A program made the position numbers and the translations under genes. The notes beneath the pieces were generated by a model. It saw only the letters and a program-made list of their open reading frames with translations. It had not been told where the DNA came from and made no database searches. From Leptogorgia sarmentosa (Eukaryota), in assembly GCA_964658305.1 (NCBI GenBank), contig OZ210885.1:19778001-19842000 (forward strand): DNA of 64,000 nt. The letters run 5' to 3'. Every line of letters starts with the position of its first letter. Positions within the stretch are counted from its first letter, which is position 1. Shown in pieces: positions 3,775 through 56,741 of the stretch.

Positions 3775-3833
3775 AAAAGTAAGAACAAAAATTGCAAAGC
3801 ATTCGTTCTATTATAATGGCCGTATTATTTATA
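3775..3833 (+). mobile_element. LINE (CR1/L2-group) ORF2 C-terminal remnant, left half of Helentron target site
   Basis: Reads KVRTKIAKHSFYYNGRIIY(N), resembling the L2/CR1 C-terminal motif; continues after 15901. Confidence 0.55.
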
Positions 3834-5624
3834 ACTAGGGATCCAAGGATAGTGCAAAGTTTCAAAAGATAGACATCACGTTACATGGCTTATAGTTGCA
3901 TAATTGCTGTTCATAAATGCGGGCTTAGTCATAAAATTGGCGAAATTCAATTATACAGCAGCTATAGCTATTATTCAAAGTCAGTTTAAGACTAATTGAA
4001 AGGAACAACGGCAATGTCCACAATTATGGATAGGCTAAATATATTTTGTTTAATCATAGTACTTCGAGAAAACAAAATAGTTATTTGAATTACTTGAATT
4101 CTTTATTTCCCCTTTTCAGTATTTGTCATTTACACCATCGTATAAACATAATAAAGCATACATGAATCATTTTCTGCCACATGATGTCATATGACATAAT
4201 ATAGAAATAATACAAGATTGGTACATGTGTAATATGTCTGAATGACGTAGCTAGTTTGGACTATAAGAATCACTTCGCTCTTTTCATATCAGAAAGTGAA
4301 GCCTCAAACCTCATATAGACACAAATCAATAATTAATCGAGATTGTTTCAAACAGTGCTTCCTTGTAATTTGCGTTGATTTCACAACGGCTTAAACTCAG
4401 TGTTTCTTATCTTTTCTTCTGAAATTCATATTATCTATAGGTTGACCATGGTTGCATGTATGACAGTTTTCTTGACTGCATAATTTCTTTGTTGTTCAAT
4501 CCAAGTATAGTCCATAGCCTATGCGATATTGTCATCGTGTATGCATATCGTTCAATTCGCATCACGCATTGTTTTATCTGGATAAAAATACAAATTTAGT
4601 ACTTAGTCTTAGTACTTAATTATATTATTTTTACTTAGCAGATCTGTACGGATTAATATTCTCATGTTAGTCGTATAATTATAATTTATAGCAAATGAGT
4701 TAGTCTTCAATATTACTGGTTTACTGTACTATCCATGAATTGGTAGTAGTAGTCCTGCGTTTATATACAGTATAGTTGAACAGCGACCTTCCAATGCTTC
4801 TTGATCTTCTTGGTTTGCCCAGTTGGGAACATTAGATCGATCTAGTATATATTATAATTATTATACAATACCTTATTAGTTTATTTTTGTTCATTCTTCT
4901 TAGTCAAACAGATTCTTAACGATGGTGATGATAATAGACTGAAATAGTTTAAATAATCAAATTAGTATGGAAAGAATTACTGTATGTACAATACACGAAG
5001 TCTAGGGGAACAGTAAGTTGCGAAAGGGACAATTATTGAATTAAGTAGCTATTGCAAAATTCAGAAAAGAAAACAACATTTACCGAAAACTCACCTTTTG
5101 AAAGCCTTGAAGCCACCACGGGGGAAACCTTCTTCTCCCCTAGTAAGTAGGGACATTGACCCCTCCAAAATAGGGTCGGAGGAAAACATGTTCTAGTCAG
5201 CATTCACTTGATTGATTATTAGTGCTATAATTGTGCTTAAATTGTTTTTATCTGTTCTGATATATGTTGCAAAATGTTCTAAAAATGTTCTGATAGTTCT
5301 GATGTATGTTCTGAAATGTTCTGATATCGGTTCTGTAAATTTTTATCTTTGTTCTGAAGATATTTTCTTTATCATCACTGCATGGTCATCTGTAAATTTA
5401 TATTAATTCTTTTCATCTTTTGATATAGTTTTAGATGAATGGTTTTATAATTCCAACCTCACAAGCTACACTCTTTACCTGGCCTTGGGTTACAGACACA
5501 GATAAAGAGCCTGGCTTGCAATGTTGTGTAATAAGCGAGATTGTATACCTGCATGTGCTTGTAACCCCTGCAAGGGCAGGTAAAGAGTCAGGTTTGCGAT
5601 ATTGGAATTAAAACAGTTAATATA

Positions 5625-6239
5625 TCATATCAGGGATACAAATATAGGCTTATGGTCACTAAAGTACGATTCTAAAGCACCACTATTTTGTATTCGTTCA
5701 GGGATATTGGTGTAGATGTGATCAATTTGTGTTTTATAGTCAGTTGTTACTTGCTTAATAAGTTGTACATATTGTTTTTCTTCAATTAAATATTTGCAAA
5801 GTGTCTTTTTATCAGACGCGTTTTCAAATAGGTTAACATTAAAATCACCAAGAATGATAACAGGGGTAATAGCATCATTTATAAAAGTAGAATGCAAGTG
5901 TCTTAAAGCATTAATCAAACTTGAAATATTTACTTTCGATTTAGAGCGATAAATTCCTACAATGTGCAAATTAATTACTGGTTGATTTATTTGGACTAAT
6001 GTTATTTCTTCATGATTGTGATTGCACCTTATAGGTTCTGAGATTAGCTGAATATTATCTTTTACGTAAATAGCCGTTCCGTACGGTGTTCTTGTACCAT
6101 GTGACATAAAATCATTTCGGAAAAGTTGAAAGCCTGGCATCTCATACAACTCATTGTTGTCATTACTACATAGAGCAGTTTCTACAAAAATATTGATATC
6201 AGCTGCTTTTAACATTGTAATCACTCGCAACATCAGCAA
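5625..6239 (-). pseudogene. Helentron C-terminal AP-like endonuclease domain (frameshifted from RepHel at ~6205)
   Basis: QNVRSLHLH (end of the upstream ORF), IFVET, GIYRS, ILGDFNV, IDHIYTN and YFSDHKP EEP-family motifs. Confidence 0.9.
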
Positions 6240-9200
6240 CGTGAAGATGTAATGATCTCACATTCTGGAATAGTATCTTAAATGTTTCGGTTGTATCTTT
6301 ATAAAGAAATGGAATATGACTGGTAAGTGAAGCATTTTGTCGTAGTCTTGTCATTTCCTCTTGTACTTTCTTGCTCACAGCTATTTTATTTTCGTTCAGA
6401 TTAAGAACATGTAATCCTGAAATGCTTCTAAGCCTGCTAAGTGCAACGTAATGCATGTGTTCTCGTTTAGAAGATGGAAGGTCCACAACGGCCTCGTTTA
6501 ATGTATCTCCTTGACAACGGTGAATAGTTTTGGCTGCAGATGGTCTTAAAGGAAACTGTCTGCGAAGAACTTGCACTTGAAGTCTTCTGAACTGTCTAGT
6601 GATCTCTAAAATTGGAACCCAACTTTTTTCTACACTTTGGTTATAAAGATGAGAGTATTCTCTGCGATAATCGTTTCCAATGTATTGTTCTTGAAATAAA
6701 ACCCAGATAATACTTGGTCTTGATGAACCTAGTACTCGGTAATCAACTTTTTTAATTATACACTCAGCACCATTAGTCATACCATCTACAACTGATACGT
6801 TTGTCGTAAGATCATATTTGGCTTCCTTCAGTATTTTACAAACTGAGTACAAGCCCATTGTTTTAGAAGGGTCATTAGGGATTTGCTTTTTAACTCTTTC
6901 TTTTAAGTCGTCAGATAAATCTCCAAGGACAATATCAATTGCTTTAACCTCGACCTTCTCGTTTACAGATTTATTAAATATGCTATGATTATGTTGATCT
7001 ACTGCCATGTTAGTACTAAATAAATGGGTTGAAGTCATTGGATAATCAGGATGTTCTGGACTAAGTTTCAAAATTCTTTCTTTTAAAACTTCAATGTCAG
7101 ATTCAGTATGTTTACCTTCTCTTATTCTATTTAAAATTTGAGCGAAGTCTTTGTCTCCTCTTTGTCTCATAACCTCTGTTAATTCAAACATTTGAAAATA
7201 TTGTTGCCAGAGATTTGTTGCTAATGTAGCATAACCATCCTTTGAGTTCTCAAATATCCAATTATCAAATACGGGTTTCAGTTGAAGTAAGTCGCCAACA
7301 GTAATTATACTCAGACCGCCAAATGGCTCTTTTGTGCCCATAATCTGTTGCAATCTTTGGTCTAAAAAATTAAACATACCACTGCCTACCATAGAGATCT
7401 CGTCAATAAAAATAACTTGCAGTCTCTCTAACTGAGATCTTATAGTATTTAATCTGTCTCTATCAAGTGTGCAATAGTTAAATCCTCTGTTAGCAGGAAT
7501 TTTAAAGGCGGAATGAAGTGTATTTCCTCTTATATTAAACGCAGCTTTTCCTGTGGGTGCTACTTTAATAACACTGAGATCGTCTGGATCATTTTCTAGT
7601 TGAACATTTAAATATCTAATAAGTGCTTCATACAAAGCATTTGTAACTGTACTTTTACCCACACCAGCACCTCCGCTTAAAAACAATCTTAATGGCATTT
7701 TACCAGTTTTTACAGAATTCAATACATGGTAAAAAAATTCCTTTTGCTCAATATTAAGTGATTGGACGAGCTTTCCAAAATCATCATCTTTTAGTCGTTT
7801 TACAACTAGTTCTTCGTTATCATTTGTTCGTGGGTATATACCAATGTCATTTATCAAGTCGTATTCGGTGTGTTGCTTATTTTTGCCAGGATCAAAACAT
7901 CCAAATAATTCACTTGCTTTTGTGCCAATTTCTTTATCTTGTTCATCTCTATATTGTGCGTTAGGAGCAACAATATTACAAAGATCCTCACTTTCAATAT
8001 CTTGTACTGCCTGGTCAAGAACTTCTGAATTATTCCCGCACCGCTTTCTGTTTTGTTCAATCAGATCTTTAACATCTTCAAGTCGATCCTGGTAGGTTTG
8101 GAAATCCTTGAGAAGATCTTTCTTTTCATTTCTCCAAGGAGTGTAAAGCATAATTTGTTCTCTGCAATAATTTTCCGGATCTTTGTTCTTATTGAATCTA
8201 ACTGACCGTATTATCCTTGGTTTTTGCCTTTTCGTGAGTATTATTCCTCCTTTCATTTGATATTCATCACCTTCGTGCAACGTTTCGTCATTTTCAGAGA
8301 CATCATCATCTACATTATCACTGAAATCAATTTCCAAAAGACAATCATCTGATAAAACTGTCGAATCAACATTTGGTTTAGCTGTTTTTTGCTGATCACT
8401 CTGACTTTTACAATTAAACCATGCAACAAAATCTGCCAAACACAAATGTTCCAATTGCTTTGGTCTTCTCTGATATCTTTTAATAACATTGTCTAACTCA
8501 ATATCAACGGAATGATCTGGTAGTTCCTTAAGTTTATCCATACCTTTAACTAAGAATGTTCTTTCATCTGGATCTGACGTATTAATAAATTGGAATTCTC
8601 TAGATGATCTTCTCAAAGGCATTTGCAGAACTAAATGCACAGCCTCTTGTGCACTTATTTCAACAGCATTAAGAAACTTATTACCAATATGTCTTACTTT
8701 GTTTACAATATTTTTATTGCCCTCCTTTGCTTCGTCACAAGCTTTACGAAGTAACTTGCTCATTCCTCTTTGACCTTTAGTAATATAGGAAAGGATATAA
8801 ACAGCACAAGCATAGGGATCTAGTACGAATTGAATATCCATGTTAGCTCGCCAAGCTCTGAGTAAATTTGGATTGTAACAGTTAATTCTAATCTCAGCTG
8901 GCGATCGTTTCAATAAGAGAGTATTATGTTTAAGCGAAAGCCTTATAGCCTCTAGATACTGCTTTTCTGATAAATCGAGCTTTCCAAGAAATTCATCAAA
9001 GGTCATCGTTTCATCAGCCATGATAGAGTCTAATAATGAACAGATTCGCCCTAAATCTTTTTTTAATTTGTCTGCCATATTTTCTTCAAGACTAATCTCT
9101 GACAAAGGTTCTAAAATCATAGTTCTTGGCATTGGCGGTAATGGAAAATTAAATCTGCAAGCATTATGTCCCTTTTTCTTGCATGATTTTGAGTGTTTAT

Positions 9201-9984
9201 GTCTTTGTAAGTTTACGAGTTCAGCCAATTCATCTGAATCAGCACTACATGAAACATAACTATCTACAAACGTTGCAATGTCATAGTCAGAATCTTTTCC
9301 ATACTCAGGAGCGCTTTTGATCCAGAATAATCCATGGATATGTGGTGAACCTCGTTGTTGGAATTCAACACGATAGAAAAAATCAACAACTTCTCCAATT
9401 GGATTATTTGAACTTTTGATAAAGCCATGAATAAATAATTGTACCATGTGTTCAAAATTTCGTGCACATGTGACTGGGTCTTTCTGTATCAATTCCGATT
9501 TTTTCTGCCAAGTCATTTCCTTGATTTCATCGTCCGTATAATCCTTATTGTCAATAAGACGGCCAAGAATTTTGATCAAGTGAATCCATCTTGTTTCAGC
9601 AGCTGAGAATGAACAGAACCAGGTTGGATTACCAAGCTGACGAATCATTCCAAATAAATCTTTCTTGCATCTTTCAAAGTATGGAGGTGAACCGCGTAAA
9701 TTCCTGAAAACTCTGAAGCCTTCATCTAAATTAATTAACTTATTAACTGAACTTTCTGACTTCAAGTCTCCAGCTGTGTAAGTTTTACCTTTCGTTTTAC
9801 ATTTACGCAATGATAAACTTGCGCTACCTTGAATTTGCTTGATTTGTAGTTTCTTTAATTTGTAAAATATATTTGGCACTGACTGTGCAACCCTTCTATC
9901 TCTGTTTCGCAATTCCCATTTACAAATTGTACTATAATGGGACAGGCACCAATCTTTCATTATTATCAGCTCGACGTTCGCCAC
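6199..9984 (-). pseudogene. Helentron Rep (HUH/Y2) + Pif1-family SF1B helicase
   Basis: Rep motifs FFYRVEFQQRGSPHIHGLFW and YACAVYILSYITK; helicase motifs GGAGVGKS, APTGKAA, IDEISMV, GDLLQLKPV, LTEVMRQ, TIHRCQGDT, YVALSR; joined to upstream frames by frameshifts. Confidence 0.95.
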
Positions 9985-10282
9985 AATAAATAGTGGGAAA
10001 AGACAAAAACTCAGAATCTTTATCTATAAATATACCAAGAGGTCTGTTTCCTTCACCTGGTGCAAAACTGATTATTTTATCACCGTGCTGAGAAATGTCA
10101 GGTTCTTGTAATAATGTGTCCATAACACCTGATGGTCGTTCAGTTGCTTCACACCACTCATCGTCAGTATCATTATCAATGCCTATGGAGTCATTACAAG
10201 CTTGACTTTCGATTTTTTCTTGTACTAACATTATTTGGCAATTCATTTTTCTTGTCAACAAATTCTGACCACTCTTTCTCAT
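9932..10282 (-). pseudogene. Helentron polyprotein middle segment (pre-Rep)
   Basis: ISFAPGEGNRPLGIFIDKDSEFLSFPTIYCG is the conserved segment preceding the Helitron Rep domain; an extra base at ~9940 separates it from HYSTICKWELR. Confidence 0.85.
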
Positions 10283-11960
10283 TATTAACTGGGTTTGTTA
10301 CATAATTATCTGACACTTATATTCAAAAACGAAGGAATACATCACTGGTGTGAACTAAATATTGGGCTGCTTTTAAAACTTTGCTTGGTCTTACATTCTG
10401 AAATTGATAGTGGTGTTTGTAACTCAACCGTCGCTTTAATTTAATTGGAATAGTTTCCGACTCATTAATTGGTCTTGGTAAGATGCTAACAGTTGAATTC
10501 ACATCGGAAGGTACGTTAACTACGTTGCCATGAATGCTCAATTGACCTCCACTAGGCAATTCTCGTACCTGCATAAAAGGTATTCTTGGTGAAATTAATC
10601 TTTCTTCAAGAGGTGTTAAATTCTTCAAAGCATCAGGCTTCTCAGGGAAAGTCATTTTATTTGCCTTTGCACAACTTGGAAGTTTTCCAACTTTCAGGTT
10701 TGAGTCACATGTGCCACATATCCATTCAGTGTCATCAATGCTTTTAAGACCAGTGAGACATAAACTAAGAATTTTTCTTGAACACGATTTATACGATGAA
10801 GCATTGCATTTAGTGACAGATGATCTATACCATAACTGGTCACAACACGTACAAATGTATTCTGGACCAACACTTATATTCTTATGAAATAATTCAATGG
10901 CTTTTGTTATGTTAATTGGTGGTATTCTCTTTGCAGAATTATCAGTTGAATTGCTTTTCCATCTCTTGTGGTTATATATCTCAGTTTCGTTTTCAATATT
11001 AGATAGCTTTCTTTTTAAATTAATATATTTTCTTTTTTGAGTGTCTTTAACTTTTTCTGAATACTTTTGCTTGTAGATTTTATTTGATATTTTTGACGAT
11101 TGTTGAACTTTTTCAGGATTTGATTGTCTGTATGTTGCATTTGCTTTTTTAATAGATTCTTTAATGCTTTTAGGATTTGATTGTCTGTATGTTGCAACAG
11201 ATTCTTTACATTTTTCGGGCTTTGATTGTCTGTATTTTGCGGTAGCTTTTTGTGACGAGATCTTAAGATTTTCAGGATTTAAAATTTTGTACTTTTTATT
11301 GTATGTCTTTTTTCGTTTATTTTCCCTACTTTTGAATTCGTTATCCATTCTCCTATTCTTCATATATTCCCTCATATAGTTCTTTCTATTTTGCAATTTG
11401 ACAGATCGTTTAGACTGTGTCTGTGTTCCATCAAATTGCGAATTTACTAATTTCGCTTTTTGGTGTTCATTTGTTGTCTGCATCAGCGACTGCATGTAAC
11501 TATTTCTTTGTTCAGAAAGAGATTGCGGAGATGATGACACATAATGCATTTCATCAAGATGTCCGATATAAATATGCCTTATATTTACTCCAGGCTCATT
11601 AGCGTGTATAGAAGTCACAACGGTCGTCTCGGTGAAATTTGCTGCAGTTTCCGTTATGTGAATTATTAAATTATTTGAATTGGCAACTGCTTGTATAATA
11701 ATATGGTCTGCCCATGTTCCTAGCTTGGCCATGTTTTGTAAATATTGCAACCATGAATTCTCAGTATTATATTCTATAAAATATTCTGGGCGGTTAATTA
11801 AATGCTGAATTGCAAGTGCTCTTATTTGGGGATGACGATCTTCTGTTCTGTAAAGCTGGTGACTTACACTACGAAAGAAACAATTACCATCACCGACGAT
11901 GTTTACTGGATTCAGACCTATTCGATCTAGTCTTGTGGTCAACACTGACATAAAATTAGC

Positions 11961-11987
11961 AGGTCCTGGATTCAATTCTATATCACC
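11961..11987 (-). other. 2A-like (StopGo/ribosome-skipping) motif GDIELNPG|P
   Basis: In frame (aa 266-274 of the 819-aa ORF); exact match to D-[VI]-E-x-N-P-G-P, preceded by hydrophobic SLFVCG. Confidence 0.8.
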
Positions 11988-12493
11988 ACACACGAATAAG
12001 GAGTATACGTCAGATGTCTTTAGTCTTTGTATATTACATTTACTAGTGCTCACGACTTTAGATCGATTTGATTTAAACAACTTGTATTTTCTTATCCTAT
12101 ATCTGTTGATATTGGGATGACGATAATCATTTCGAGATGAAAGTGATATTGAGATTGTATATGTGTTGGTATTATTCAGTTTCAAGTGGCGTTCACAATT
12201 TTTTGCATTCTCATATGTACATGCGTTGAAAATATTCTTTTGGCTTCCGTGATCATGAATGCCAAGGTCACTGACTTCATTAAGTTTAATAACCTCACAA
12301 GTGTTAGGCAGTTTATCATATAACGTTATCAAAGGTTCTTCATAAATTATCAATAGTTGCTCGTAAGTTATGATAGGTATAAATGCAGTTTCACATAAAT
12401 CACGATATTGCACCTTTGTGCCGGACCCGTGAAATCGGTCCGTGTCGATGTCGTGTTGGACATCTACGCGCCTTTTAACATCCGACATGTTGG

Positions 12494-12720
12494 CCTGGCG
12501 AGTCAAGGGCTTGTCGATAACAAAGTTGCTATCTCCTTGCCTTTTGTTTCGATTTATACATGAAACACCCTGGCAAGTCAAGGGCCTGTCGATAACAAAG
12601 TTGCTATCTCCTTGCCTTTTGTTTCGATTCATACATGAAACACCCTGGCAAGTCAAGGGCTTGTCGATAACAAAGTTTCCTTGTCTTTCGTTTCGATTTA
12701 TACATGGGACACCCTGGTAA
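12494..12720 (-). repeat. 75-bp coding tandem repeat (about 3 units of TCQGVSCxNRNKRQGDSNFVIDxPL)
   Basis: CCTGGCAAGTCAAGGGC recurs at 75-bp spacing (12569, 12644). Confidence 0.9.
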
Positions 12721-13497
12721 GTAATGGGATTTCCGCTCCTTTTAGATATATTGTCCATATAGTAAAAAGCCATTGTGACCAACTCCGTTTAAAATGTACT
12801 GCTAAATATATTTGCGTACATATTATTATGATGCAAAATCATGGCTATAAATAGTTTAATATATGCAAAATGTAGGACTAAAAATAGTGAACAATGCACA
12901 TACCTATTAAAAGCAGTGCCAAGAAAATTAGAACATGAGTTTGGTATTAACGGCTTTTTCAGATTGTACAGTGGCTCTGGTGATATGAATTTTAATAGTA
13001 CAGTCTGAAAAGTTGTACTAAAGAGTGGTGTCAATCGTGTTTTAATTTAAAGAAATTTAAAATAACATCGCTCAAACGGTGACTGTGTGTTTTAATATAA
13101 TTTTCGCAAGATGACGAATTCGAAACCGTTTTTATTTTCTCACAATTTCGCATTACTCATGTAAGTGCATGGACATTTTTGTTTTCCTATACAGTTCAAC
13201 CCCTATACTGTGGTTCAACTTTGTCAAATGGTCAAATTGATCATAAGCCAGCTTTCTCAAACGACTATTAATAAACATTACAACCTGCACGTGCTACATA
13301 AATAACATCACAGTTCATAAATGGCAACATGACATAAACAATCGTAACAGCCAATCAAAGCAGTTTGTCGTCACGCGTATAATTGTTTACATTGCAATCA
13401 CCATCACCTGATTGCAATTTTCACACGTCATTAGCACATGTAGTCATTGTCTGCTGGAGGGGAATTTTGTACTGCGGTTTTATACAATAACAAGAAA

Positions 13498-14664
13498 ATG
13501 AAAAAACGTGAGAAATCTCAGAAACAGACGGGAAAACGTCAACAAGACAAGGAAACGGCTAGCTCGAAAGTTGCGGTTGTCGTTGGGGCAGATCAATCTA
13601 GCACAAATATTCCACAGCATGAAAGCGAGCCCTCTCGTTCTTTGGTGGGATATGTGCACAAGTTAAGTCTGCCAAAAAGAAATAGACAAGATACAATGAA
13701 CTATTCAACATTCGTATTTCAAAGCGAGAAGACTACTCGGAAGTGCCTGTGCTTTTCCTCAGCTAAACGACGTCTCTTGCATGAAAAAGAGTCCAATAGA
13801 GCAGCAGTAAAGCTTAGCGGCTATACCTTCACAGGTGCTGACAGCAAACTAGTGGTAAACGATGTGACTACGGTTTCCACAGCAAATCCAGCAGAATATT
13901 CATTCCAATACTCAGCCGAATTAGATGCTAAAAGTGATCAAGTGATTTCCTTGAAGTAGGTCTTAAGTGACGAGTCCGCAGATATGGATGTTGTAAATGT
14001 GTCCGTCAAAGTTGTTGCAGTCGAGCCGGCGCAGGTAGTTGGAAAAGACAAGTGGAAACTTGCCAATGCCCTTATCAGTGATCCTACAGAAACGATTGTG
14101 CTTGAACTGTGGGAAAATCATACGGAAGCCGTAGAGATTTCGAAGACTTACATCATGCGAAATGTCCGCGTTCGCCTTCGCAGTGGAGTGAAAAAGCTTG
14201 GAACAACCAAGGACACTATAATTGAAGAAACACGAAGCGAATTAGAGAAGGTCCACTATGAAACCGAGGATGGGAAAAGCAGAGCTGAGTCACTTACACA
14301 AAGTAAAACAATAATGGTCGACAGAATTGAATATGTGCAAAAATTCGAGACATTTAAGAAATGTGCCAACTGCAAAATGAAGATCATTCATGTATCTGCT
14401 AAACCTACTACATTCTGTGACAAATGTGAGGGAACTATGAGGAGTACCGATTGTGACGAGGGCTTCTGGGCAAAGATTGTGGTTAAACTCGATGGAAAAA
14501 ATCTTGCGCTTACAGTATACGAGGAAATTCTTAAACCGTTTCTGGAAGGAAACCAGCCAAATATTGACACGTTGACCCAACGTCTACTCCTGAACACTGG
14601 TAAATTCACAATAACTTATAACTCGGATACTAACATTGTTAGTGCGATGGCGTGTTGCTTGTAA
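13498..14664 (+). pseudogene. Helentron-borne RPA70-like ssDNA-binding protein (OB folds + C4 Zn finger), one premature stop
   Basis: ORFs 13447..13959 and 13984..14664 are in frame across a single TAG (13957-13959); VNVSVKVV...ALISDPTETIVLELWE OB-fold pattern; CANC-x13-CDKC finger; AATAAA at ~14998; lies inside the Helentron termini. Confidence 0.8.
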
Positions 14665-15901
14665 GATTGCGAGACATTTGCACTCAAGTACTGCAGGTTG
14701 TTGACATTATTTTTAATATACCTATAATTTAAAAGCGAAGACTTTGCTCGCTGGAGGTATTGCTATTTATGTTCATGCATGCATCAGCATGCGCGTGTTA
14801 TTAGTGCATCATTGTGTTATGTTACAGTATAGCTATGTTGTGTTGATATGGTATTTGCATACATAAAATTATACGTCGAGCAAGTTTTATTTTGTAATTT
14901 TTACTTTGATTTTTGAAAAGTTGGCATGTTTTAGTTCAAATTGCTTGTTTATATTACATAGTATGTATGAGTTTATAAGAACATAAACATTTGTATTAAA
15001 TAAAACTTTTATATTACAACGGTATTTACAGTGTTTTTACTTTACTTCGATTTTGAAGTGCTCCTAGTGTAACTCGCGGACTTCTTACACTGCATTGGAT
15101 CATGATAAACAGACATTAATTTATGCCCAAACACACCGAATACGACGCGCCAACGCGGCACGATTTTTCGAAATCTGTTTTGAAGCGAAACCAGACGACT
15201 CAAAATGTGCTATCGTTCAGTAATTTTAAAAAATATCATATTAGGATCAAATTTACTTGCTTTTGAAAACTGGAATAGGTTACTGTAATAGGCATTAGCC
15301 ATAGTGAAACAGCCCGGCACTTTACGAGAGATCTCCTTGTCGACATCGATTTATTAAGCGAAACTCGAGTCTGCAAAGCCTTGCGCGCCAACGTTTATCC
15401 CACAATATCGTTATAACTGTAGTACGACTATAAACGTGTTTTGTATTTCTAAATGTTCTATGTAAGACACGCTAAATGTACTATGTAAGACACACGCCCA
15501 TTGTCATCGCCATATTTTCACATTTAAAAATATTGTAAACTTTCACGCAGGAATAGCGCATGCGCATTTAGACCATTTCTCACGAAAAATCGAGCTGCAG
15601 GGGGGCAGTCGTTTAGAATGCATCGAAATACCCGTTTGAGAAATAAAAAATATCACAATAAAATCGATAGTTGCATGATTACATTTTGCTTAACATTTTA
15701 AAAAGCAACAGAATTACATGTAAAGAAGTCATAACTTGTGTAGTTAGTTAAAAAGTGAAACCAGAATTGTTTTTATATCGATCCGGTAAGGAAAAGCAGC
15801 AATCACAAACCCCCCCCCCGTAAAGTTTACACTATGATGTATGTATGACTCGTGTAAATTTCGCCCCTCATCACAATAGTGCAAAGTTAAACTTTGCACT
15901 A

Positions 15902-16113
15902 ATAAACTTAGTTCTGTTAATTAAGAACATTTGTAGTGAACATTCAGTACTATATATTGAACAGTATTTTTATTTAGATTATATATTATATAACTGTAAT
16001 TGACTAGTTTTGTGTTGTGTATGTAAATACTTTTAATCTATCTAGGGCTCCCATCTATAAGTAATTTTTATTACTGACTACCCTATTTAAATAAAGGTTT
16101 TATCTATCTATAT
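15902..16113 (+). mobile_element. LINE 3' UTR/tail, right half of Helentron target site
   Basis: Joining 3833 to 15902 restores ...IIYNKLSSVN*; ends AATAAAGGTTTTATCTATCTA, a microsatellite-type tail. Confidence 0.5.
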
Positions 16114-22677: not shown

Positions 22678-25600
22678 CAGGCCTGAAAATAATTTTTCCA
22701 AGGGCACCTGACAAAGTGTCAGGCCCCAATTACTTGGTGCCTGACACTGTGTATCTTGTGCCTGACATAAAATTCCAGCCAATAAATTGATATATACTGT
22801 TTCATCACGATTATTATCACAATCATGCTGAATTATGTTAATGTTAAAAATACACCTTAATGAGCATTGGTATCATAGTAATCATACATACAGTATAATT
22901 CATATTAAGTGTACACTTCATAATCATTTGAATGTTTTGTTCACTATGCCAACTAAAATAACAGTAAAACTCAAATTACTAGAAACCATAAAAATCTTCA
23001 GAAGAATGTGAATCATCAGAAACCCTATTGTCATTATTGTCAATGTCATTAGCTACTACAGTACTACAGGCAACTTGTACTGGGACTTTGGGGCAGCATG
23101 TATGCCATGTTGCTGTTGGAATTGGATCACACTAGAGTCACTACTACAGCTAACAGCTTGAGTCTGTGATATCTTCAACAGAAGATTCCTCATCTGAGGT
23201 ACCGCTACTTGTACTGCTAGTGCTAGTAGCATCAACTGAAGAGAATAGATTAGTGTAATTTTCCTCATCGTGGTATTTCTTTGGCTTCTGTTTTCTTTGT
23301 TTGTACTTCTTCCTTTTAGTTTGGTTAGGTCTCCTAACTTTGCTGTTACTCCACAGTTTAACTACAGGAGTTACATCAAAAGAGCCAAGTATTGGACCTT
23401 CTTCTTTGATTCTGAGCAAGTTAGTTAGTCTTTTTTCACTCAGAGAACATCTTAAATCAGTTTTTGTTCGCTGCATGTTTGAAAACATGCGTTCCAGTTT
23501 GGCATTCGACACTGGAATAGAAAATAGCAATTCAACCAAGGTAAGAATGTTCTTCCATTTTGTTAGTGCATAGGAAGACTGGAAAAGAAACCTCCATGTT
23601 TTCCTGTAGTTGTGCTTGTTTGGCTGTAGGTAATTGATACTATAGGTAAACAAGTCATGCCATTCAGCAACAAGTTCTGTACACAAACACTCAACACCAG
23701 CATTACCCAAGACTCCCTGAAAATGCTCAAACAATCTGCTGATTTCAGTATCAAATGTTCCTTCATTAAATTTGGGGCAGGGGCTTTCCACTTCATCTTC
23801 TTCATTATCTTCTTGTGGTAGAGAAGCTTTTGCCATCCATGACTCAGTATTTAAAACAAGGGCAATGTCCTGTAAGGTAGAACTTCCTGAATCATCCAAT
23901 CGTGTAGAAATACAAGCACATATGGATTCAGTTATTTTGTTTTTGTTTGCTTTTAGCAATTCCAGTTCCCTTTCAAACTGGATAGAACTGAATTGAATGC
24001 CTTGGTATGTGTGTGTTCCATCAGCGCTGTTAACTTTGCTCAAGAGATGCTTGGTGGCAGGAAGATCTTCTAAGCTCAGCTTGCTGTACAGTTGAATTTT
24101 ATACTTGGTTCTATTCAGAGCACCGGTAGCACCCACAATATCTATGTCATCTTCTTGGAATATCTTTGATAACTCTGCAGCAGGGGTTAACACGTCAATA
24201 AAAAATGCAATGTACAATACCATTTTACTGGTTTTCCACTTTCTTAAATGCCCAATAAGTTTAGCATTGCCTTCCTCTTGGGCCAGATTTTCCAAATGCA
24301 TCAGATAAATTCCAAATTTATCAAGTACTAATCTTAATGCTGCTAGCTTGAATGAAATCCAACGTGTTCCATTTGCTCGTTTTGGTTTCAAGGATCCTTC
24401 AACAAAGTCAAATGTATTTTTCAGTTGTTCATGAAGAGCTTTAAGCTCATGTAGTTTCTTGGGAGACTTGCGATAAAGAGAATACAGGCGTGTAAGCATT
24501 TTCTCAACCTGCTTGAAAAATGTTGGCTGGAGTGCATCCTTTAGGGCAAGTTCCAATCTATGAGCCACACACCATTGGAAAATTAACCAGGGTGACTTTT
24601 CTTGCAACAAAGCCTTTACACCATTTTTGTCACCACTGTTTACAGAAGCTCCATCAGCACCAAACCCAACGAGCTTAGAATAAAGTACATTCTTAGAGAT
24701 TCCCAAAGAAGCAAAACTGGATTCAATAGCTGACTGAATACCAGCAGCATTGGCCTTCTTCACATCTTTCAGAGAAAGAAATGCCAGTTTGAGTCCAACT
24801 TTTTCTCCAATTGTTTTTGGATCAAAATAGAGTACATAGACAAGCTCCTTTTCTGTAACACTGCGGTCAGTGGAACCGTCTGTTAGTACACTGTAAAACT
24901 TTGCTTCTTTCAGATCGTTTGCCAGTTTATTTGCTAGGTATTCTCCGTGGTAATCGATAAACTCTGTACATTCAATACGGTTTATATACGCATCACCAAT
25001 GTCAACACCATGGTGTTTTTCTAGAGTAACTAGTTCTTCATACATAGTGAATGGAAGTTCCTTTTTTGCCACGAAATACGCAAGTTCGAATTTCTTTTTC
25101 ATCTGCTCTTGCTTTAATTGTGACATTTTGGCAAATCCTTCGACAACAGTTGGTTGTTTGTGTTCAGGCATTAGTTTCTTCGGCATCTGTAATGACTCTC
25201 CTGTACCAGTGCGAAGCTCGTTAGCATGTAATCGGAAAGCCCGAATGTGACAATTTGTATTTGCGTGATCTTTTGCATTCGATAACTTGAAGTTTTGTGA
25301 TCCAATTACCCAGGCATTTGAGAAATCCTTCATAACGCTTAGCTGCTGCTTATACTTTTGGCACAGCTTACAGTACAGCTTTACCACGTGCCCCTGCTGG
25401 CTAGCGTCGTAGTGAAGCCAAATACTTGCATTGTCTTTGGCAAGATCTTCGTTGATCCATCGCTCAACCGTTGTTACTCTCAATACGCGTTTCTTCTTAC
25501 TTGTGGAATCCTGCTTTAGAAGTTCCTCGTTGTTTACACGGGAATTTGTAGCGGAAGGACTATGAGATTCGCTGCAATTTACGGAATCACAAGCTTTTTG

Positions 25601-26033
25601 AAAAAAGTCAGTGATGCGTGAAGCCATATTTTGTCAAATTCCAATGCCGGCGTGGTCGTGCGATCACCAACCGCGCGACCGAACATCAGACTGGGAGTCT
25701 GGGGGATACTCAGGTCTCCTGTAAATGATGTAAAGTTTTCGGACGAAGATGGCCAATTCATGAACGTCAAACTGAATTGGATTTCAACTTGGAAACTCGT
25801 CACAAAGGTGGTCAAGATAGCGGCAGTAGCTTGCTGTATTATTCAGCAACTATATTTAGACATGTATCTCTGACTTCGTTTTAGTAAAATGTATATTTAT
25901 TGATGCGAATACAGTTTGTAAAGTATCAGCAAACAGTGCCGGACAAACTGTCCGGCAAAAAAGCAATTGTGCCTGACAGTTGCCCTTTTTGCACCAGACA
26001 ATGTCCGTGTCCGGCCGCTTATTTTCAGGCCTG
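22678..26033 (-). mobile_element. Intact autonomous hAT transposon
   Basis: Perfect 15-bp TIR CAGGCCTGAAAATAA; perfect 8-bp TSD GTGAGTAA (22670-22677, 26034-26041). Confidence 0.95.
23150..25627 (-). CDS. hAT transposase, 825 aa (ZNF862-like subgroup)
   Basis: Uninterrupted ORF with LYCKLC...H...CH finger, TDGSTD, GADGASVN, WCVAHRLEL, GTRW, PVSNAKLERMFS. Confidence 0.93.
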   Translation of the reverse strand: MASRITDFFQKACDSVNCSESHSPSATNSRVNNEELLKQDSTSKKKRVLRVTTVERWINEDLAKDNASIWLHYDASQQGHVVKLYCKLCQKYKQQLSVMKDFSNAWVIGSQNFKLSNAKDHANTNCHIRAFRLHANELRTGTGESLQMPKKLMPEHKQPTVVEGFAKMSQLKQEQMKKKFELAYFVAKKELPFTMYEELVTLEKHHGVDIGDAYINRIECTEFIDYHGEYLANKLANDLKEAKFYSVLTDGSTDRSVTEKELVYVLYFDPKTIGEKVGLKLAFLSLKDVKKANAAGIQSAIESSFASLGISKNVLYSKLVGFGADGASVNSGDKNGVKALLQEKSPWLIFQWCVAHRLELALKDALQPTFFKQVEKMLTRLYSLYRKSPKKLHELKALHEQLKNTFDFVEGSLKPKRANGTRWISFKLAALRLVLDKFGIYLMHLENLAQEEGNAKLIGHLRKWKTSKMVLYIAFFIDVLTPAAELSKIFQEDDIDIVGATGALNRTKYKIQLYSKLSLEDLPATKHLLSKVNSADGTHTYQGIQFSSIQFERELELLKANKNKITESICACISTRLDDSGSSTLQDIALVLNTESWMAKASLPQEDNEEDEVESPCPKFNEGTFDTEISRLFEHFQGVLGNAGVECLCTELVAEWHDLFTYSINYLQPNKHNYRKTWRFLFQSSYALTKWKNILTLVELLFSIPVSNAKLERMFSNMQRTKTDLRCSLSEKRLTNLLRIKEEGPILGSFDVTPVVKLWSNSKVRRPNQTKRKKYKQRKQKPKKYHDEENYTNLFSSVDATSTSSTSSGTSDEESSVEDITDSSC

Positions 26034-26832: not shown

Positions 26833-29130
26833 TTACAAAAAAGGAACTTTTCTAGCCTTTGCAGAGGCAAAATCATTTGCCAGCTTTGAGAAGTCAAGCG
26901 AACGTAAACTGTCTGATTCCATACTCATCAGTGATAGACCACTTAAGCGTGTTTGTCCCATCGTGCTAAGCGAAACGCTCTTTACGCGTTTTAGTTTCGA
27001 GAACGAGCGCTCCCCTGTGCAATTACTGACCATCATGGTGAGATAGATCCTCAACGCAATTTCCACATTTGTGAAGGTTTCACTTAATTCATTATTTTTG
27101 AGATTGAGGAACATCAATAGTTCAATGGACCTCTTCTCGTCTTCCTTTTGCTTGACTCTCATCTTCCTAACAATTGAACCAGGCTGCAACGGCTCGAAGA
27201 AGTAATACACAAACTGGACTAGTTCATTGGGGAAGGTTTCTTCTAAATCGTCTGGATAGGCTTCAACAAGCTTTCGGGCACAAGCCTTCACATCCTCGTC
27301 GCAAATACTGCTAAGCTGCGAAAAGAAGCCAAATCTCTCAGAAACGGTCTTGTAGCCAACGATTCTTTGTTTCAAAGCAGCACAGACGTGGTCAATAATC
27401 GCGAAAAACACTTCCATGCGAAATTTGATGCCGCCTTGCAGAATTGTATCCTCCGCTGCACCTTCGTCACCCTGGAAGATTCGTCGATTTCGTTTACGGG
27501 TACGTCTTGAAGCATCTGTGTACTCACTATGGCCGCACATTTCTACGGCTTTCTTCTCATAATCGTTGAATTTCTCCCGTAGTTGCTGTACGAATAGCAA
27601 AAGCGAATCCAGCAAATTTACAGCACAATTCAAGTATAAACCGGCTTTCTGCAGTGAACAACTTGTTTTCTGGAACTGTTGTAGTATGTCGTTCCACAAT
27701 TGAAGTAAAATTGCAGTTTCAAGTTTTTCAAGATGGTTGAGAAGACCGGTCACCTTGTTTCTTGTTTCTTGTTTCTGCGGATTGTTCCGAGTCAGCTGCA
27801 ATTTCTTCCAAGGCATTTTTGTTCTGCTCGTAGCCATTCCTCAGTGCTTTCACCGCATCACCTTGCGCGGACCAGCGTGTCTCCAACAAAGATTTGTCAA
27901 CAGGCAGTCCCTCGAGATGCTTCTTTAGAATTGCCCAGCGATGAGTGGATGCTGAAACGAAGTTGTAGAGACTCTGAATCAGGTTGTACATTTCACTGGC
28001 CAACAAACAAGCTTCTGTAGCGTGTTTCCCAACCAAATTGAGCGAATGAGCAGAACAAGGAACATATTTGGCATATGGTGAACATGTTCGAATAACAACG
28101 AATTGTCGTACGATTGTCCACGGCACAGTTCAATAGAAATGCCCTGCTCAGCCAGAAACTTCAGCAAGTGATTGGCGATTTGGACTATGCATTGGTAGAA
28201 ACGTAGGAAAACGCTCAACAGGACCAGTGGATGTAACGTATCGGACTGTTACTGTTAGTTGATCCATGTGCGTTACATCCGGGGTTGAATCAACAGATAC
28301 GGAATAGTGGATAGATGATTTGACTTCTTCTACAATGGTGGAAAGAACTTGTTTGCGCATGAGTTCTATAAGCTCTTCACAAATAGATGAAGACAAATAG
28401 GAGGCATGTCCTTTGCCTTGGTTGCCGTGCATTTGAATGTGCTGGGCCAGAAAGGGGTCATATTCAGCCAGAAGCTCAACAATCCCTAAGTAATTGCCAT
28501 TGTGTACTGAGCCAACCAGCTCGTCTTTACCGCGAAAGGCTAGACCATGCTTGCACAAAAACGTAACAATGCTAATCAGTCGATTTAGCAAATCTCGACC
28601 ATAAGGCACTTCATCCTCGTCTTGTTTAACCAATGCTGCATCAACGGTGGCCCCTCGCAACTTCCGTGTGCGCAGGGAAATCATAGCTTCGCGATGGCCT
28701 GCACTGTTTTCATGATGGGAGATCTGTTCACCCGCATGTTTCCAGTCATTGTATCCAGTGACAAACTGAGAGCTGAATTTCTGAGGCATTACTTTGCATG
28801 CAAAACAGTATATCCGTCCGGTTATCTTCGAGCACAACCATTTGCGGTCAATTTTCTCACCTGTGCGAGGAATTTTCGTGAAATATGAAAGCTGACAGTA
28901 GCGATCAATCTTTTCGCTTACCGAGATTGTCAATGTGTCAACAGTCATCCCTTCCACGTGCAATCCAGAAGCTACGCATATCATCGGGTAGTTCATCGGG
29001 CCAAGCACCAAGATCGTTTGGGAAATTGTTCCAGTGACAGCCAGATGCTAACGATGCTTGTTCTTTCGACTCTTTGTTATCCTTAGCCTCATTCCGAATT
29101 TCTTCGGTTGCGGTTTCACTGACAGTGACA
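26833..29130 (-). pseudogene. hAT transposase (ZMYM1-like subgroup), multiple frameshifts
   Basis: IYCFAC, GLAFRG, VDSTPDVTHMDQL, GQSYDN, PCSAHSLNL, ETRW and SNCTGERSFSKLK spread across four frames. Confidence 0.9.
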
Positions 29131-41164: not shown

Positions 41165-43700
41165 CAGAGGCGTCGCTAGGCCTGTATAAGTGAGTGGGTG
41201 TAACGTGACATTTTGCCGAGTGCATAAGCACTTTTTTGCTGACTCACGAAATATTGAACAGCATACGACATGTACGTGAAATGTGGTACATGAATGGAAG
41301 TAATTGACCTACATTACCCCTCGGACACAGCTAATATTTTTTGACACATGTTACTGAATAGTATAGCTTGCAACTATAAATATAGCAAGTGTTACTTGAC
41401 TGTACAGCCTTACAACGAAATTTACAACGGAGAATAACCTGTATTAAGCACTCAACATTTGTATATATTTAAATTCTGGGTGAGTGAAACATTTTACTTA
41501 GCCAAACATTCAGTTATGAAAATAAGATCACTCTTGGCAATAACTGCAATTTATGAATCTGAATGGTTGAAGAATTTTTTACTATACGTCAATGTTTGCG
41601 CATGTTTGCCTTTACTAAACTGTAACGTTATTTTTCTATAGTACTAATCATTCAACGCCTTGGTTTCGAAGCCCAAATTTTCAAAACGTCTTCAATGTCC
41701 AATGAATCAGTTAAGTGCTTTTCGCAGTTTAAAATCATCAAGTTATCCAACCGCTTGTCAGCCATTGTCGATCGATAAACTCCCTTCACAAATTTAAGGT
41801 GACTAAAAGTTTCATGGTCCTTTGCAACAGAAATAGGCGCTGTCAACACAAGCTTGTATAATTTCCACGTTAAAGGTAGGATAGCTCGATGATCATAGAC
41901 AAAATGGATAACTCTGTCTCCACTCGCCAGTTCGTCCTGACTTGGCACTTTGGTGTTGGACAAAATGTTGGCGAAAACTTCTAACTCGGCTGCTAATACT
42001 TCGCAATCGACATTACTTGGGATCATTTCTGCTACGGCCTTTATGTCTGTTGGTAATGCTTGTTGCAATGAAAGCTGCAATAGACGTGATAATGGCGCAA
42101 TGATGTCGAGTGTTGGCTGGATCTTCTCTTTAAATTCCGTTATCAAAACATCCAAAACGCACTTAAACTCTTTCCGAAAGAACTGATATAGATCAAGGAT
42201 GGCTGTTGTTTCAGGATGTTCGTCTAAACGCCTAGGCGGACGACGCGTTCTGTGATGTTTTGCGAAATCTGCTTCAGCATAGATTCCAAGCTTTTTCGAG
42301 TATTCTGTCGCAGCCGTTATCTGGGATGTCATTGCCGTCTCGTCCCCTTTAATTCTTTCCAAGGAGATTATCGTGGCTTTTGTCATCTCTAAAGCTTCAA
42401 TGATATTCAATTCTTCTCGCTGAAGTGCATCACTGAGAAACTTCGTTTTCAACAAGATATTTTTCATGAACATCAGACTTGCTATAAAGTCGAAACTCTT
42501 GACTTTTTTTAGGAGGCCGGATGCTGTCGCTTTTACTTTCATTTCCACTGTAGAATTATTTACATCTTCTAAACTGCTCAAAACAGCTTCTAGAGATGCC
42601 CACACAGCTCTGATTGACTCAGATCGCGCGGTCCATCTTGTTTTTGAAAGATTTCTGAGCTGAAGGCTGTTTTCGATGGGTCCAAAGTGGTGTGACAACA
42701 CGGCGTGACGTTTCGTACTTCCGGAAAAGAAGACGTACAAATCTTGCAAGATGTTGAAAAGTTCTTGTATTACTGGACTGCTGTTACAAGCATGCTCTAC
42801 TACAGTATTAGTTCTGTGAGCTTGACATGTGATGTATGGAATCTTTCTCTGCAGTTTCCTTTCTATCTCAGCTTGTGCCCCATGACAGTGACCAGACATA
42901 TTAGAAGCAAAGTTATATGACTGAAAAACCAAGCAGGAAGTTGCCAAACCATTTTCTTCTAGTGACTCGATTATGTCATTTGCTTGTCCAATACCAGTTT
43001 TCTCAGTGGTTTCTCTAATCTCGAGTAGACGTTCTTTAAGAGCGCATGTAGAGCTATCTTCTTTTACATACCTCACTGCAACCGCAAAGCGATCTTTCTT
43101 AGACGTGTCCAGAGTTGTGTCAGCCATAACAGAAAACATTTTCGAGTCTTTTACATCTTGCCGAACTTTAGATCGAACACAGCTTCCCAAGATTGCAATC
43201 ATTTCATTTTGTGATTCTGCGCTCAAATACGTAACGTGATATGGTCGCAAGCGAGCCTCACTCAGCCATTTCTTAAGACTTGGGCAATGCCTTGACACAA
43301 GCTGGACAATCTGGTAGAAGTTGCCATCCTTTTCACCATGTTCATGGGTAGATGATCCTCGGAAAGGTAAACCCTGACGACCAAGTGTTCTTGCAACGTC
43401 CAACAAAATACACGCTGCCCCTTCATTTGCCAGACTGTCTTCTTTCTCTTGAATGGCATTCACACGCTTTTCTCTGTCGAGTAGCATATCTACGTTAGAA
43501 GAATCTCGATTAAAGGAATAAAAGCTGCTAGTGCTGATTTGTGTGCTTTCGAACTGAAGTGTTTAGCAAGTTTACCGGTTTTTCCTCTGCTGCTTGACCC
43601 ACAACTAGTCATCTTGATCTTGGCATTGCTTCTTGACTGGAATTTCCTCGTTTCGTGGAAAAACTGGTAGTTTAGGCTGATGTGGTCCAAGTTTCATAAT
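41165..43700 (-). mobile_element. 5'-truncated hAT transposon
   Basis: CAGAGGCGTCGCTAGG terminus at 41165; transposase ORF inside; other terminus not found. Confidence 0.75.
41652..43487 (-). pseudogene. hAT transposase (ZMYM1-like), 611-aa open frame but probably inactive
   Basis: GLPFRG, MADTTLD, TCQAHRTN, KTRW; QSYN in place of QSYD and KDHETFS in place of ERxFS; N-terminus missing. Confidence 0.85.
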
Positions 43701-44649: not shown

Positions 44650-46600
44650 TATATGTGTTTATAACAATAATAACAAGGATTACCGGACTACCTGTATCAT
44701 GGTAGTTGTTCTTTAGTATCCTTGTCTGCAATTTCCACTCGTTGCAAATGAGGGTAAGATGTTGCCATTGTTTCGAAATGAGGGTTGGGAATTGTTAAAA
44801 GTTCCGTCTTATTCACCTTCGTCAGTTTCACATCCATTTTGAATTTGTCGTCAAAGGACGATATCTCCGCCTCATATACCTCTAATTTGGTAAAATGCGT
44901 CCCCAACAAAGTTTCAACTTTCCTGGTCATGCTCTGGCTTGGTTTCTTGTTCAACATACCTGCAACCTTTGACACGTATGAGCTATTTGCCCCGCTATCA
45001 ATAAGAGCCCGCGTCAGTACCCCATTCACTTTCACCAGGAGTGTTGGGAATACCCCTTCACCCTCTCTATTTGCAGCCAACGCCACTTTGTTTCCTGGTG
45101 CACTCGGTTTGTCACATATAGACGTATGATGTCTCCTCAAACACTTTTGACAGGACTTCTTACTTTGACAGTGAGCCGCTTGATGACAGCCCATCGCACA
45201 ATTGAAGCACAACTTCTTTTTTGCCAAAACTTGCCTTCGATCAGCCACTGTTGTGAACTTGGTGCATTCCGTAGCTTTGTGCTCGTTGCTCTCACAATAC
45301 ACACACCCTCTCGGTCTCTCGCCTCGGTTAGTCATGAGTACTCTGTCTCGCCGTCTCCTGTTTTGCTCTTCGTCTCGACTAAGGTCTGCTGGATTTCTTC
45401 GGATCCACAGCCGCAAAGCTTCAGCTAACTGTTCCAGGTTCCAATTCTCCCACTCATTGTCTGATCTCACCAAATCACCGCGAACTGCTGGTAACTTGTC
45501 AATGGTCATAGTGATTAGTCCCTTTACTTCCTCCAATTTTTTAAGTGACTGCAGCGAGCGGACACAGTATGTTAACTTGTCACTAAACTCTGCTATTCAT
45601 TTCGGATCCGCTGATGAGACGTGTGGCAGATTCAGGATTTCTTTTACATACGCCTTCACGATCTCTGACTCTTTTCCATATTTCTCGCTCAGTATCGCTC
45701 TCGCCCGATTATAACCTTCCGTCGTGAATGGCAACGAGTCCACTTCACGTCTCACTTCATCCCCTAAAAGCTCTTTCAGGTAGGAAAATTTAGCGATGCT
45801 TGCCAATCCCGATTTTTCTGTTGATTCCGTAAACTGCCCCCAAAACCTCTGCCAATCCATAAAATCTCTGTTAAATTTCGATATAACCAACTTGGGTAGT
45901 TTTGCTTCCACTTGTGATGAGCCCGCTTCCTTAGATGTTTTTCCCTCTGCCAACTTTTCCCTGTGTTCTACTTCAAGTTTTAATTTCGATTCGTGCAGTT
46001 TGATTTTGAATCTCATTTTCTCTTCGAGAGCCTGTTGCTCCATTTCCATTTTACAGTTGTGCAGCCAGCTTTCCAAGTATTTGATATTCTCGTCCGCTTG
46101 CGTTAAATTCTGTTCGATTTTGTCATTCCATGTTGCGATTCTTGTTTCCTCTTCACCTTCCGTAATTTTCCCTAACTCGACCTCGCGTCGCGATTTTTCA
46201 ACCTCTTTCGATAGCTCTTTCAGTGATTCTATCTGTCGATTTGCAGCAGAGCTCTTTCCAGACTCAAGCACGGTGCCTGTTCTCCCGCAAGTCATGAGTA
46301 ATTGCTTCAGTTTAACGCTTAAATCGGCCATCCTGTCATTAGTTTCAACCGCCATCTCTTTAAGCCAACAACACCACACGATACTATATTCGATATATTT
46401 CTCGCAAAATCTCGTCGGAGGTGCCACATTTCACAAATTGTCCGCCCCCCTAGACATGTATTTGTGAAAGAAGTCTCCGCTTGAGTAAATAAACCAAATA
46501 CTTTTAATAACTTTAACAATTCAACAACAATCACTAATAATACGTCCCTGATCTCGTTCTCCCTCGTGTTTTTATCTCTCCCTTACCCCCCACGACGAAT
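44650..46600 (-). mobile_element. BEL/Pao LTR retrotransposon 5' part (partial LTR, PBS, gag, protease)
   Basis: TGGCACCTCCGACG PBS-like at ~46412-46425; KLPKLVISKF...WQRFWGQF (DUF1759-like); three knuckles CVYC..H..C, CFNC..H..C, CQKC..HHTSIC; ALIDSGANSSY protease. Confidence 0.88.
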
Positions 46601-54376: not shown

Positions 54377-55144
54377 CAACTGATTTACAGAACAAACCTA
54401 ACTTTGTCAGCATTACTGACATGTAATCAAAAACAACTCTACTACTTAATAAAAACTGTTTTACAATTTAAAACTGTTTTGATAACAATCAACTGTAATC
54501 ATGACCTTGAATAAAGATAACATTTCCATGGTGTACATGAAGGTAAAGAAACATCATAACAACAACATTGTACATATACTTGTTCATAAAATACAGTCTT
54601 TGAGATTGTATGCACTTAATTCAATCTAAACAACTTTAAGATACTATAACAAAATAGCTAGTATAAAAGTTTTTACTAGTGGGTACAGTAATTGCTAATT
54701 TAGTTGTTATTTTTTTCTGAACATGCAACTGTATCATGTGAAGCTCCAAGTGTTTCACTATGATTTATCCCAAAGAATGCAGGTGGTTGAAATGGTTGTT
54801 GTGAATGTGGGAAATACTGATGAGGATTATTTTGATGCATTTGGGATATCCCAATCATGGTTTGAGATAACATACTGAACATCTGACCAAATAATTCTCT
54901 GTCTTCCTTCCTTTCTTGCAATCAAATTGGTTATGTTTCCCATCTGTTCATTTGACTTTTCGATTACATCAAAGACGTGCTTTCTTGCTGCGAGATGCTT
55001 TTACAATTTTTTTCTCTCGTTTTTGTGGGTTACTAGCACTGGCAGATTCCTCGTTCTCTGACATATCTAATGCTGCATCAACATCATCACACTGCTCTAT
55101 TTGCTGTGTTCCACTTTCAAACAACTGTTCTTCAGGAGGATTAT

Positions 55145-56397: not shown

Positions 56398-56741
56398 ATT
56401 CACTGGTCGAGGACCTGTTATTAATTATAAACAAAAGAACTTTTTTGGTCATTGGTGCATAAAATGCTTTGTCTGTTGAAAAGAAATTAATTTAATATTT
56501 AGTGATCATCAACAATGGAAACATTGTCAATGAATTACGACATGTGAAAACCAAGCTTTGTGCCATTTCTGAGAATTTGACTTTAAAATGTTTACTCTGA
56601 ATTTGTGTTTTATTAACTACTATTAATTAAATGATCTATACAAACTGTGCCAAACTTTGCACAATACATCACAAACTCTAGATTGGTTGTGACATTTTCG
56701 AACTTTACTGAACTTTCAAATTGATCGACCCAACCTTTTCT

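Follow-up and report, generated by a model that had tools for sequence, protein, structure and literature searches.

A conserved 2A/StopGo-like peptide at the border between leader and deubiquitinase in Helentron transposons

The locus described here raises the question of whether a recoding signal of the 2A/StopGo type could be used by a rolling-circle DNA transposon. On the minus strand of the window, i.e., the whole 64,000-nucleotide stretch of Leptogorgia sarmentosa DNA that was analysed, positions 12020-11961 encode a 2A/StopGo-like 20-mer (...LFVCG-DIELNPG/P), which lies in frame between a leader and an OTU-like protease. In the literature found, descriptions of 2A use are confined to viruses, retrotransposons and a handful of cellular genes. 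The original prediction was aware of no such feature in Helitrons, and our full-text searches likewise found no literature linking the two, while other supplements, subscription journals or Repbase reports could hold a prior note. The word "Helitron" is absent from the main text of PMC12338488, PMC12846837, PMC3708506, PMC13405545 and bioRxiv 2026.09.24.754024, as well as from the supplements of PMC12338488 and PMC13405545.

The motif and the element that carries it

The frame hosting the motif (minus strand, 12788..10323, 821 aa, P0001) reads ...LKTSDVYSLFVCGDIELNPGPANFMSV...IVGDGNC, with KTSDVYSLFVCG directly ahead of DIELNPG/P and 22 residues between the last Pro and GDGNC, so that its translation confirms the exact in-frame DxExNPGP proposed to lie 22 aa ahead of the OTU active site. 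D269 of the motif is encoded at 11984 and the last Pro at 11963-11961, which places the predicted skip point between 11964 and 11963. Counting all six reading frames of the window, D[VI]ExNPGP would be expected ~0.00003 times by chance. The peptide fits the 2A core D(V/I)ExNPG/P and has L at -12, V at -10 and C plus G before D, as in the helix and the (A/S/C)G of 2As; with one Leu at -19..-10 it falls short of the at least three that were linked to activity in PMC13405545, a trend and no strict rule. A contig with zero differences covers 11688-12541, indicating that the motif region exists as DNA in the form seen here, even if the run concerned is possibly the window's own source. Elsewhere in the window, NTNPGP occurs among stop codons in two copies of one repeat (~39980 on the minus and 60088 on the plus strand) and is not a 2A.

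The Pfam domains follow the order OTU, DUF6570, Helitron_like_N, PIF1 and APE (Table 1), and the OTU keeps its catalytic residues (Cys303 in GDGNC, residues 299-303, and His415 in HYVS). With HUH Rep, PIF1, C-terminal APE, DUF6570 and subterminal inverted repeats (subTIRs) all found, the proposed Helentron identity held, and in sequence the element matches the Helentron/HLE2 descriptions of PMC4067079 and PMC11417382. It is most like those elements of HLE2 subgroup b that bear an OTU or a Herpes_teg_N (VTD) domain (PMC4067079, PMC11417382, PMC9741609), sharing Rep, PIF1, C-terminal APE and DUF6570, the OTU upstream of Rep, an upstream RPA/Ssb-like gene, 13-nt subTIRs with a 5' inverted repeat and, possibly, a T-rich target. 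However, the accessible parts of these descriptions contain neither a leader protein nor a 2A, whereas here a conserved 2A parts a family-less leader from the deubiquitinase (DUB). The closest named relatives among the matches listed are from the coral Oculina patagonica.

Table 1. Coordinates of the features of the element within the window.
Feature	Position	Strand	Basis
Whole Helentron (HLE2) copy, ~12.07 kb, non-functional	3835..15903	-	13-nt subTIR pair and contig breakpoints; ends good to 2-3 nt
5' subterminal inverted repeat TAGTGCAAAGTTT	15889..15901	-	k-mer script; 4 matches at <=1 mismatch vs 0.34 expected
Short inverted repeat beside 5' subTIR, hairpin-forming, DINE-1-like	15877..15889	+	inverted copy of subTIR
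Divergent RPA/SSB-like OB-fold gene	13498..14664	+	Ssb-like_OB E=2e-4, under curated cut-off; ORFs
Leader, Met6-Gly275 of P0001, predicted upstream product	11964..12773	-	translation and alignment
2A/StopGo-like 20-mer KTSDVYSLFVCGDIELNPG/P	11961..12020	-	frame translation and anchored columns of relatives
OTU-like cysteine protease	11535..11936	-	Pfam OTU E=7e-13
DUF6570 (HLE2 marker), CxxC motifs ahead	10347..10688	-	Pfam E=4e-21
Frame break 1 (stop at 10325-10323)	10200..10330	-	translation and tblastn
Frame break 2	9930..9960	-	contigs and tblastn
Helitron_like_N / HUH Rep	9328..9915	-	Pfam E=1e-24; frame 10023..6199
PIF1 helicase core	7099..7758	-	Pfam E=4e-33; frame 10023..6199
Frame break 3, helicase/APE boundary	6199..6215	-	contigs and tblastn
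APE-type endonuclease	5625..6212	-	Pfam; frame 6257..5625
3' end: subTIR (3850-3862), then TCCTTGGATCCCTAG, then T-rich flank	3835..3862	-	subTIR and contigs

As in HLE2 elements, the subTIR is present at both ends (3850 and 15889) and has an inverted copy beside the 5' one (15877). The k-mer script recovered these ends, which were absent from the 25 longest pairs of a general inverted-repeat scan. The 5' end was placed from the subTIR only. The 3' end is set by contigs from 4/4 runs, which diverge from the window at 3827-3833 into unrelated flanks and lose their likeness to it at ~3833. This end is flanked by TT on the element strand, with the loose ends of other insertions mostly A-rich on the plus strand and no empty site seen, and a weak hairpin past the 3' subTIR lies 15 nt from the end, versus 38-60 in mite elements. 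Its 30-bp terminus (3833-3863) is common to very many other insertions in 4/4 runs, which suggests that non-autonomous (HINE-like) families are abundant. Contigs cover the 3' end very deeply, depth here not being equivalent to copy number. The subTIR of the window was found in 0/53 metagenome loci, which are only ~55% identical to it in Rep. Within the element, the RPA/SSB-like gene points away from the transposase; it encodes OB folds together with a Cys4 motif, and a stop at 13957-13959 breaks its frame. Just past the APE stop lies an inverted repeat (5445-5613) with 43-nt arms that are 79% complementary.

Comparison with three intact relatives by tblastn traced a single ancestral frame, which in the window is disrupted near 10320-10200, 9940 and 6210 into four frames, with the APE, which intact relatives carry as a fusion with the helicase, split off. 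While relatives have intact frames of 2300-2660 aa, the three breaks leave no intact RepHel frame here, and as its sequence reads the window copy is dead and makes no transposase. The proposal of a 2A within a Helentron ORF stands in so far as the motif is in frame, with a long leader before and an OTU after it, but it does not extend to a transposase from this copy.

The window also contains three hAT-type transposase genes (DUF4371 plus hAT dimerisation; 23150-25633, 26833-29047 and 41652-43562) and a MITE-like inverted repeat of ~350 bp with 88% identity (1331-2200). DDE_Tnp_4 and Myb/SANT ORFs stand face to face at 53105-57717, an arrangement as in PIF/Harbinger elements, and DUF1759 and aspartyl protease pieces at 44697-46430 are presumably the remnant of a BEL/Pao LTR retrotransposon.

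Conservation of the peptide among Helentrons

Relatives were searched for with residues 279-821, i.e., with a query that starts 3 residues past the motif and excludes it; 214 proteins passed, and the best 120 of these were analysed. The exact D[VI]ExNPGP is present in 34/120 and a one-residue variant in three more; together, these 37 represent every NPGP in 256,053 residues, in which 0.0005 exact motifs would be expected. Among the same best 120 of 214, the motif is found in 29 OTU rows with room upstream and missing from 8, the corresponding numbers for VTD rows being 8 and 26, so that 34/120 have room before the DUB yet no motif. In a Rep-region tree of 71 rows, which was quick, unrooted and has long branches, the motif is present in 23/23 full-leader rows of the window's clade (SH-aLRT 99). 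From this tree, 49 N-truncated or DUB-less rows were omitted, of which 11 belong to the clade of the window (P0033 being borderline), and P0054 had no Rep segment for it. Over the whole tree the motif label takes at least six changes, showing that gains or losses recurred.

In the anchored columns of the window's clade, D, N, P, G and P are each found in 23/23 rows and E in 22/23, with -12 being I/L/V and -10 being L/V/M in 23/23, while the top residue at +1..+24 reaches at most 52% anywhere and the flanks mostly stay below 50%. The last Pro is invariant in 38/38. The proposed check of conservation against flanking divergence was thus run and supports the motif, which is kept among Helentron relatives with divergent flanks. 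Positions -12/-10 correspond to L7/L9 of FMDV 2A, two sites at which mutations reduce StopGo, and the residues conserved here are those that touch the ribosome tunnel or alter activity in the FMDV peptide (PMC12846837). Across 9 DNA copies, the six invariant residues use 2-3 codons apiece, and hence the constraint acts on the peptide. An exact motif also occurs in 8/53 metagenome loci, including 5/7 loci with an OTU match, and the frame upstream of it stays open over 207-383 codons, both in the window and in the five motif-bearing OTU loci. Open upstream frames, synonymous variation and the leader core of relatives (see below) together indicate a peptide that is constrained as such, in frame between two regions predicted to be translated.

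The motif is missing from L041, P0169 and P0256, in which a leader core leads to an OTU, and also from L030 and P0033, and Asn occupies -12 in L012 and L046. In L041 (3900-4680), leader core and OTU share one open frame without a 2A, and the ESDISVESRP found in this locus may be a decayed motif.

Leaders and deubiquitinases around the motif

The N-terminal product had been expected to be variable, but it is not simply so, since relatives have a conserved basic core. Two main leader types precede the motif. The REPSRI leader is basic, 135-400 aa long and has the core R.REPSRI...K...M....R..IK..I...P.SS.L, found in 23/120 relatives (best 120 of 214) and 7 loci; the short leader has 46-125 aa and starts with M(G)I/V....Y/WR..IG. 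A first leader search with P0050 as query gave 7 matches only. A REPSRI core profile, built from 16 of the core-bearing sequences, matched 518 cluster representatives, and of the best 150 examined 114 stop too early; the motif (lenient pattern) is found in 15/22 with at least 90 residues past the core, plus 14 shorter ones. Where a domain was recognised after the motif in these best 150 of 518, it is a VTD in three and an OTU in the remainder. With the short-leader profile, 32/33 new proteins carry the motif, and the domain behind it is a VTD or an OTU. Capture of leader and 2A from LINEs was considered as well but gained no support, as 0 APE/RT domains were recognised past the 2A in the matches of either leader profile (word-based or top-150, non-exhaustive searches).

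Both leader types were seen before OTU and before VTD, giving all four combinations with the 2A at the seam; two unrelated leaders joined to either enzyme mark the 2A as a module border. The original prediction had placed the 2A before an OTU, which is true of the window, but in relatives either an OTU or a VTD follows. According to PMC9741609, the Helitron VTDs assayed to date act as deubiquitinases, and transposon OTUs still await activity tests. From the last Pro to the active-site Cys of the DUB, be it an OTU or a VTD, there are 27-52 residues in 36/37 motif rows, the exception being P0099 with 82; in P0090, outside that count, the OTU is 425 residues off. The REPSRI core was modelled as three helices (pLDDT 69), for which Foldseek gave no match in the PDB. 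The Atlas gave no usable match either, and Pfam assigned no family to the core in the proteins scanned, 12 of them with a leader and 3 being full-length relatives with the core.

The leader of the window itself has three repeats of 22-25 aa (66-75 bp) at 12494-12731 with C-x-N-R-x-x-R-Q-G units, and in other leader groups short repeats of another kind occupy roughly the same position. The REPSRI core is absent from the window copy in all six frames. The alignment has a gap in this leader near 12110-12130, and in a contig of a different organism a join made of undetermined letters falls at 12106-12109; we infer that the core was probably lost by an in-frame deletion in this copy.

Further arrangements were observed among the relatives. 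About 15 VTD Helentrons without a 2A (the P0093-P0123 clade) have an NLS-like MPRK...KAAEQRE ~50 aa before the DUB, where their proteins start, and hence have no long leader, and in P0127 a short leader and 2A precede Cys motifs and repeats of DUF5568, with no DUB.

Possible functions of the peptide

The 2As of the APE-type non-LTR retrotransposons L1Tc, Ingi, CR1, L2, Crack and Rex1 (PMC3708506) have the same hydrophobic-(S/C/A)G plus DxExNPGP near the N-terminus of a single long frame, and their mixed activity and proposed role in self-restraint count as a further likeness. They precede APE-RT in retroelements, whereas the Helentron 2A precedes a deubiquitinase in a DNA transposon, often behind a leader of 240-400 aa. 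With the L-rich upstream class of viral StopGo/2A peptides, e.g., FMDV 2A (PMC12846837), it shares the core octapeptide, the aliphatic -12/-10 and the (A/S/C)G before D, but it stands outside an RNA-virus polyprotein, has fewer leucines and is probably less efficient. A 2A-like peptide and a deubiquitinase within one mobile-element protein, as found here, are also known from ORF2p with Josephin or OTU DUBs, a pairing that the accessible text of PMC13405545 reports for retrotransposons only. That paper further cites a viral OTU that rescues 2A-linked stalling, which by analogy would suggest a reason why a DUB comes after the motif.

The motif by itself is insufficient for activity (Odon et al., PMC3708506). 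In PMC13405545, a 2026 preprint, 20-mers were assayed in HEK293T cells and assigned to SVM classes from Sort-Seq, with a class model of 86% accuracy on its own training set. Chosen search terms retrieved five library peptides that are identical to Helentron peptides at 18-19 of 20 positions, one of them matched by eye (L021). One, YFVSHRVISLSGDVEENPGP, was classed as skipping, two, NVYVPLLLRLSNDVEENPGP and NAYIPLLIRQANDVEENPGP, as fall-off, YNASERNILLSGDIELNPGP as non-skipping and YCVSKMKLLMSGDIELNPGP as non-skipping with reduced protein; the five score 2.2-3.1, with negative controls at ~3, and a library peptide sharing its last 12 residues with the window peptide scores 3.3-3.6. For one look-alike the source protein is visible; it comes from a coral and matches VTD/PIF1 in a further supplement row. 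One row lists a VTD/PIF1-labelled protein, probably a Helentron, under the name "ATP-dependent DNA helicase". Helentron-like peptides are present, unrecognised, in this library.

On this basis, we favour, with a probability of roughly 0.55, that the conserved 2A-type peptide at the leader/deubiquitinase border acts in intact relatives as a leaky StopGo, by which the leader would be released and transposase output lowered. Ribosomes would pause at NPG/P, where some would free the leader and continue into Pro-OTU-DUF6570-Rep-helicase-APE, and others would drop off or read through. More leader than transposase would then be produced, and the deubiquitinase would be placed at a free N-terminus. 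Three of the five look-alikes fall into classes that free the upstream chain (1 skipping, 2 fall-off), which counts for a leaky StopGo, and the single skipping assignment among the five counts against efficient skipping (PMC13405545); by analogy, the efficiency of the Helentron 2A is probably low.

A possible, though less likely, alternative is that the peptide serves as a stall or drop-off attenuator only, with reacting ribosomes terminating or being cleared by quality control and the transposase arising as a read-through leader fusion. In line with this, 3/5 look-alikes show fall-off or reduced protein, and among retrotransposon 2A-like peptides tested, 59% of those from ORF2p and 70% of those from ORF1p were reported to show reduction (PMC13405545). 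Yet the look-alike that matches P0020, P0026 and P0028 at 18/20 positions is in the skipping class, the last Pro is never replaced, and the window's clade is poor in Leu, which the reduction class is not.

It is improbable that the transposase begins at the downstream Met (MSVL), via leaky scanning, splicing or an internal start, with the 2A ending a separate upstream product or being a passenger. The original prediction had named such a start as a refutation, and the Met is indeed kept in 13/13 rows of the window's subclade (9/9) and its sister group (4), which counts against StopGo; gene calls for P0014 and P0017 also open at a Met within this linker, reflecting truncated calls. However, 16/37 motif-bearers have no Met between Pro and catalytic Cys, other clade members have N, S or I at that position, as would fit a residue with a structural role in the first helix of the OTU, and the leader frame is open with a conserved core.

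We consider it quite improbable that the motif represents a post-translational signal (e.g., a site cut by a host protease or by the element's own OTU/VTD) or a linker of structural value that resembles a 2A. The motif nearly always adjoins a cysteine protease domain, and PMC4067079 proposes that the OTU might cleave subunits, but the conserved positions are the ribosome-tunnel contacts of 2A, the identical motif precedes two unrelated proteases at a variable distance from the active site, and the VTDs tested to date cleave ubiquitin (PMC9741609). Nothing in the data pointed to cleavage of the polyprotein by the OTU, which the original prediction had raised as an option. Finally, a functionless relic of a non-LTR retrotransposon is highly improbable, since despite the abundance of LLLSG-type 2As in marine-invertebrate APE-type LINEs (PMC3708506) and the LINE-type APE domain of Helentrons, the motif is invariant across Rep regions just 50-70% identical, with variable flanks, and the recognised downstream domains in both leader-profile match sets are all OTU/VTD with no donor found, a conservation pattern by which this reading appears largely refuted.

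Beyond the leaky StopGo itself, we tentatively propose a wider scheme for coral Helentrons, which we regard as rather doubtful. Here, the 2A would free an ORF1-like basic leader of a new family in excess, the DUB, emerging directly behind the pause, would strip ubiquitin drawn by stalling or host defence, and the 2A would form the junction at which leaders (REPSRI or the short MG..YR..IG type) and DUBs (OTU or VTD) are swapped. If true, this would add a functional 2A-DUB pairing to StopGo recoding in a DNA transposon.

Taken as 2A/StopGo, with skipping itself judged by analogy, the peptide would extend this type of recoding to rolling-circle DNA transposons, i.e., a known recoding signal in a new setting. 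Many Helentron "single ORFs" may consequently yield two products, one of them conserved without a match in Pfam or the PDB. The relatives supply dozens of natural 2A variants with known phylogeny, and it is now testable why Helentrons have deubiquitinases and whether cellular 2A-like peptides split or limit proteins.
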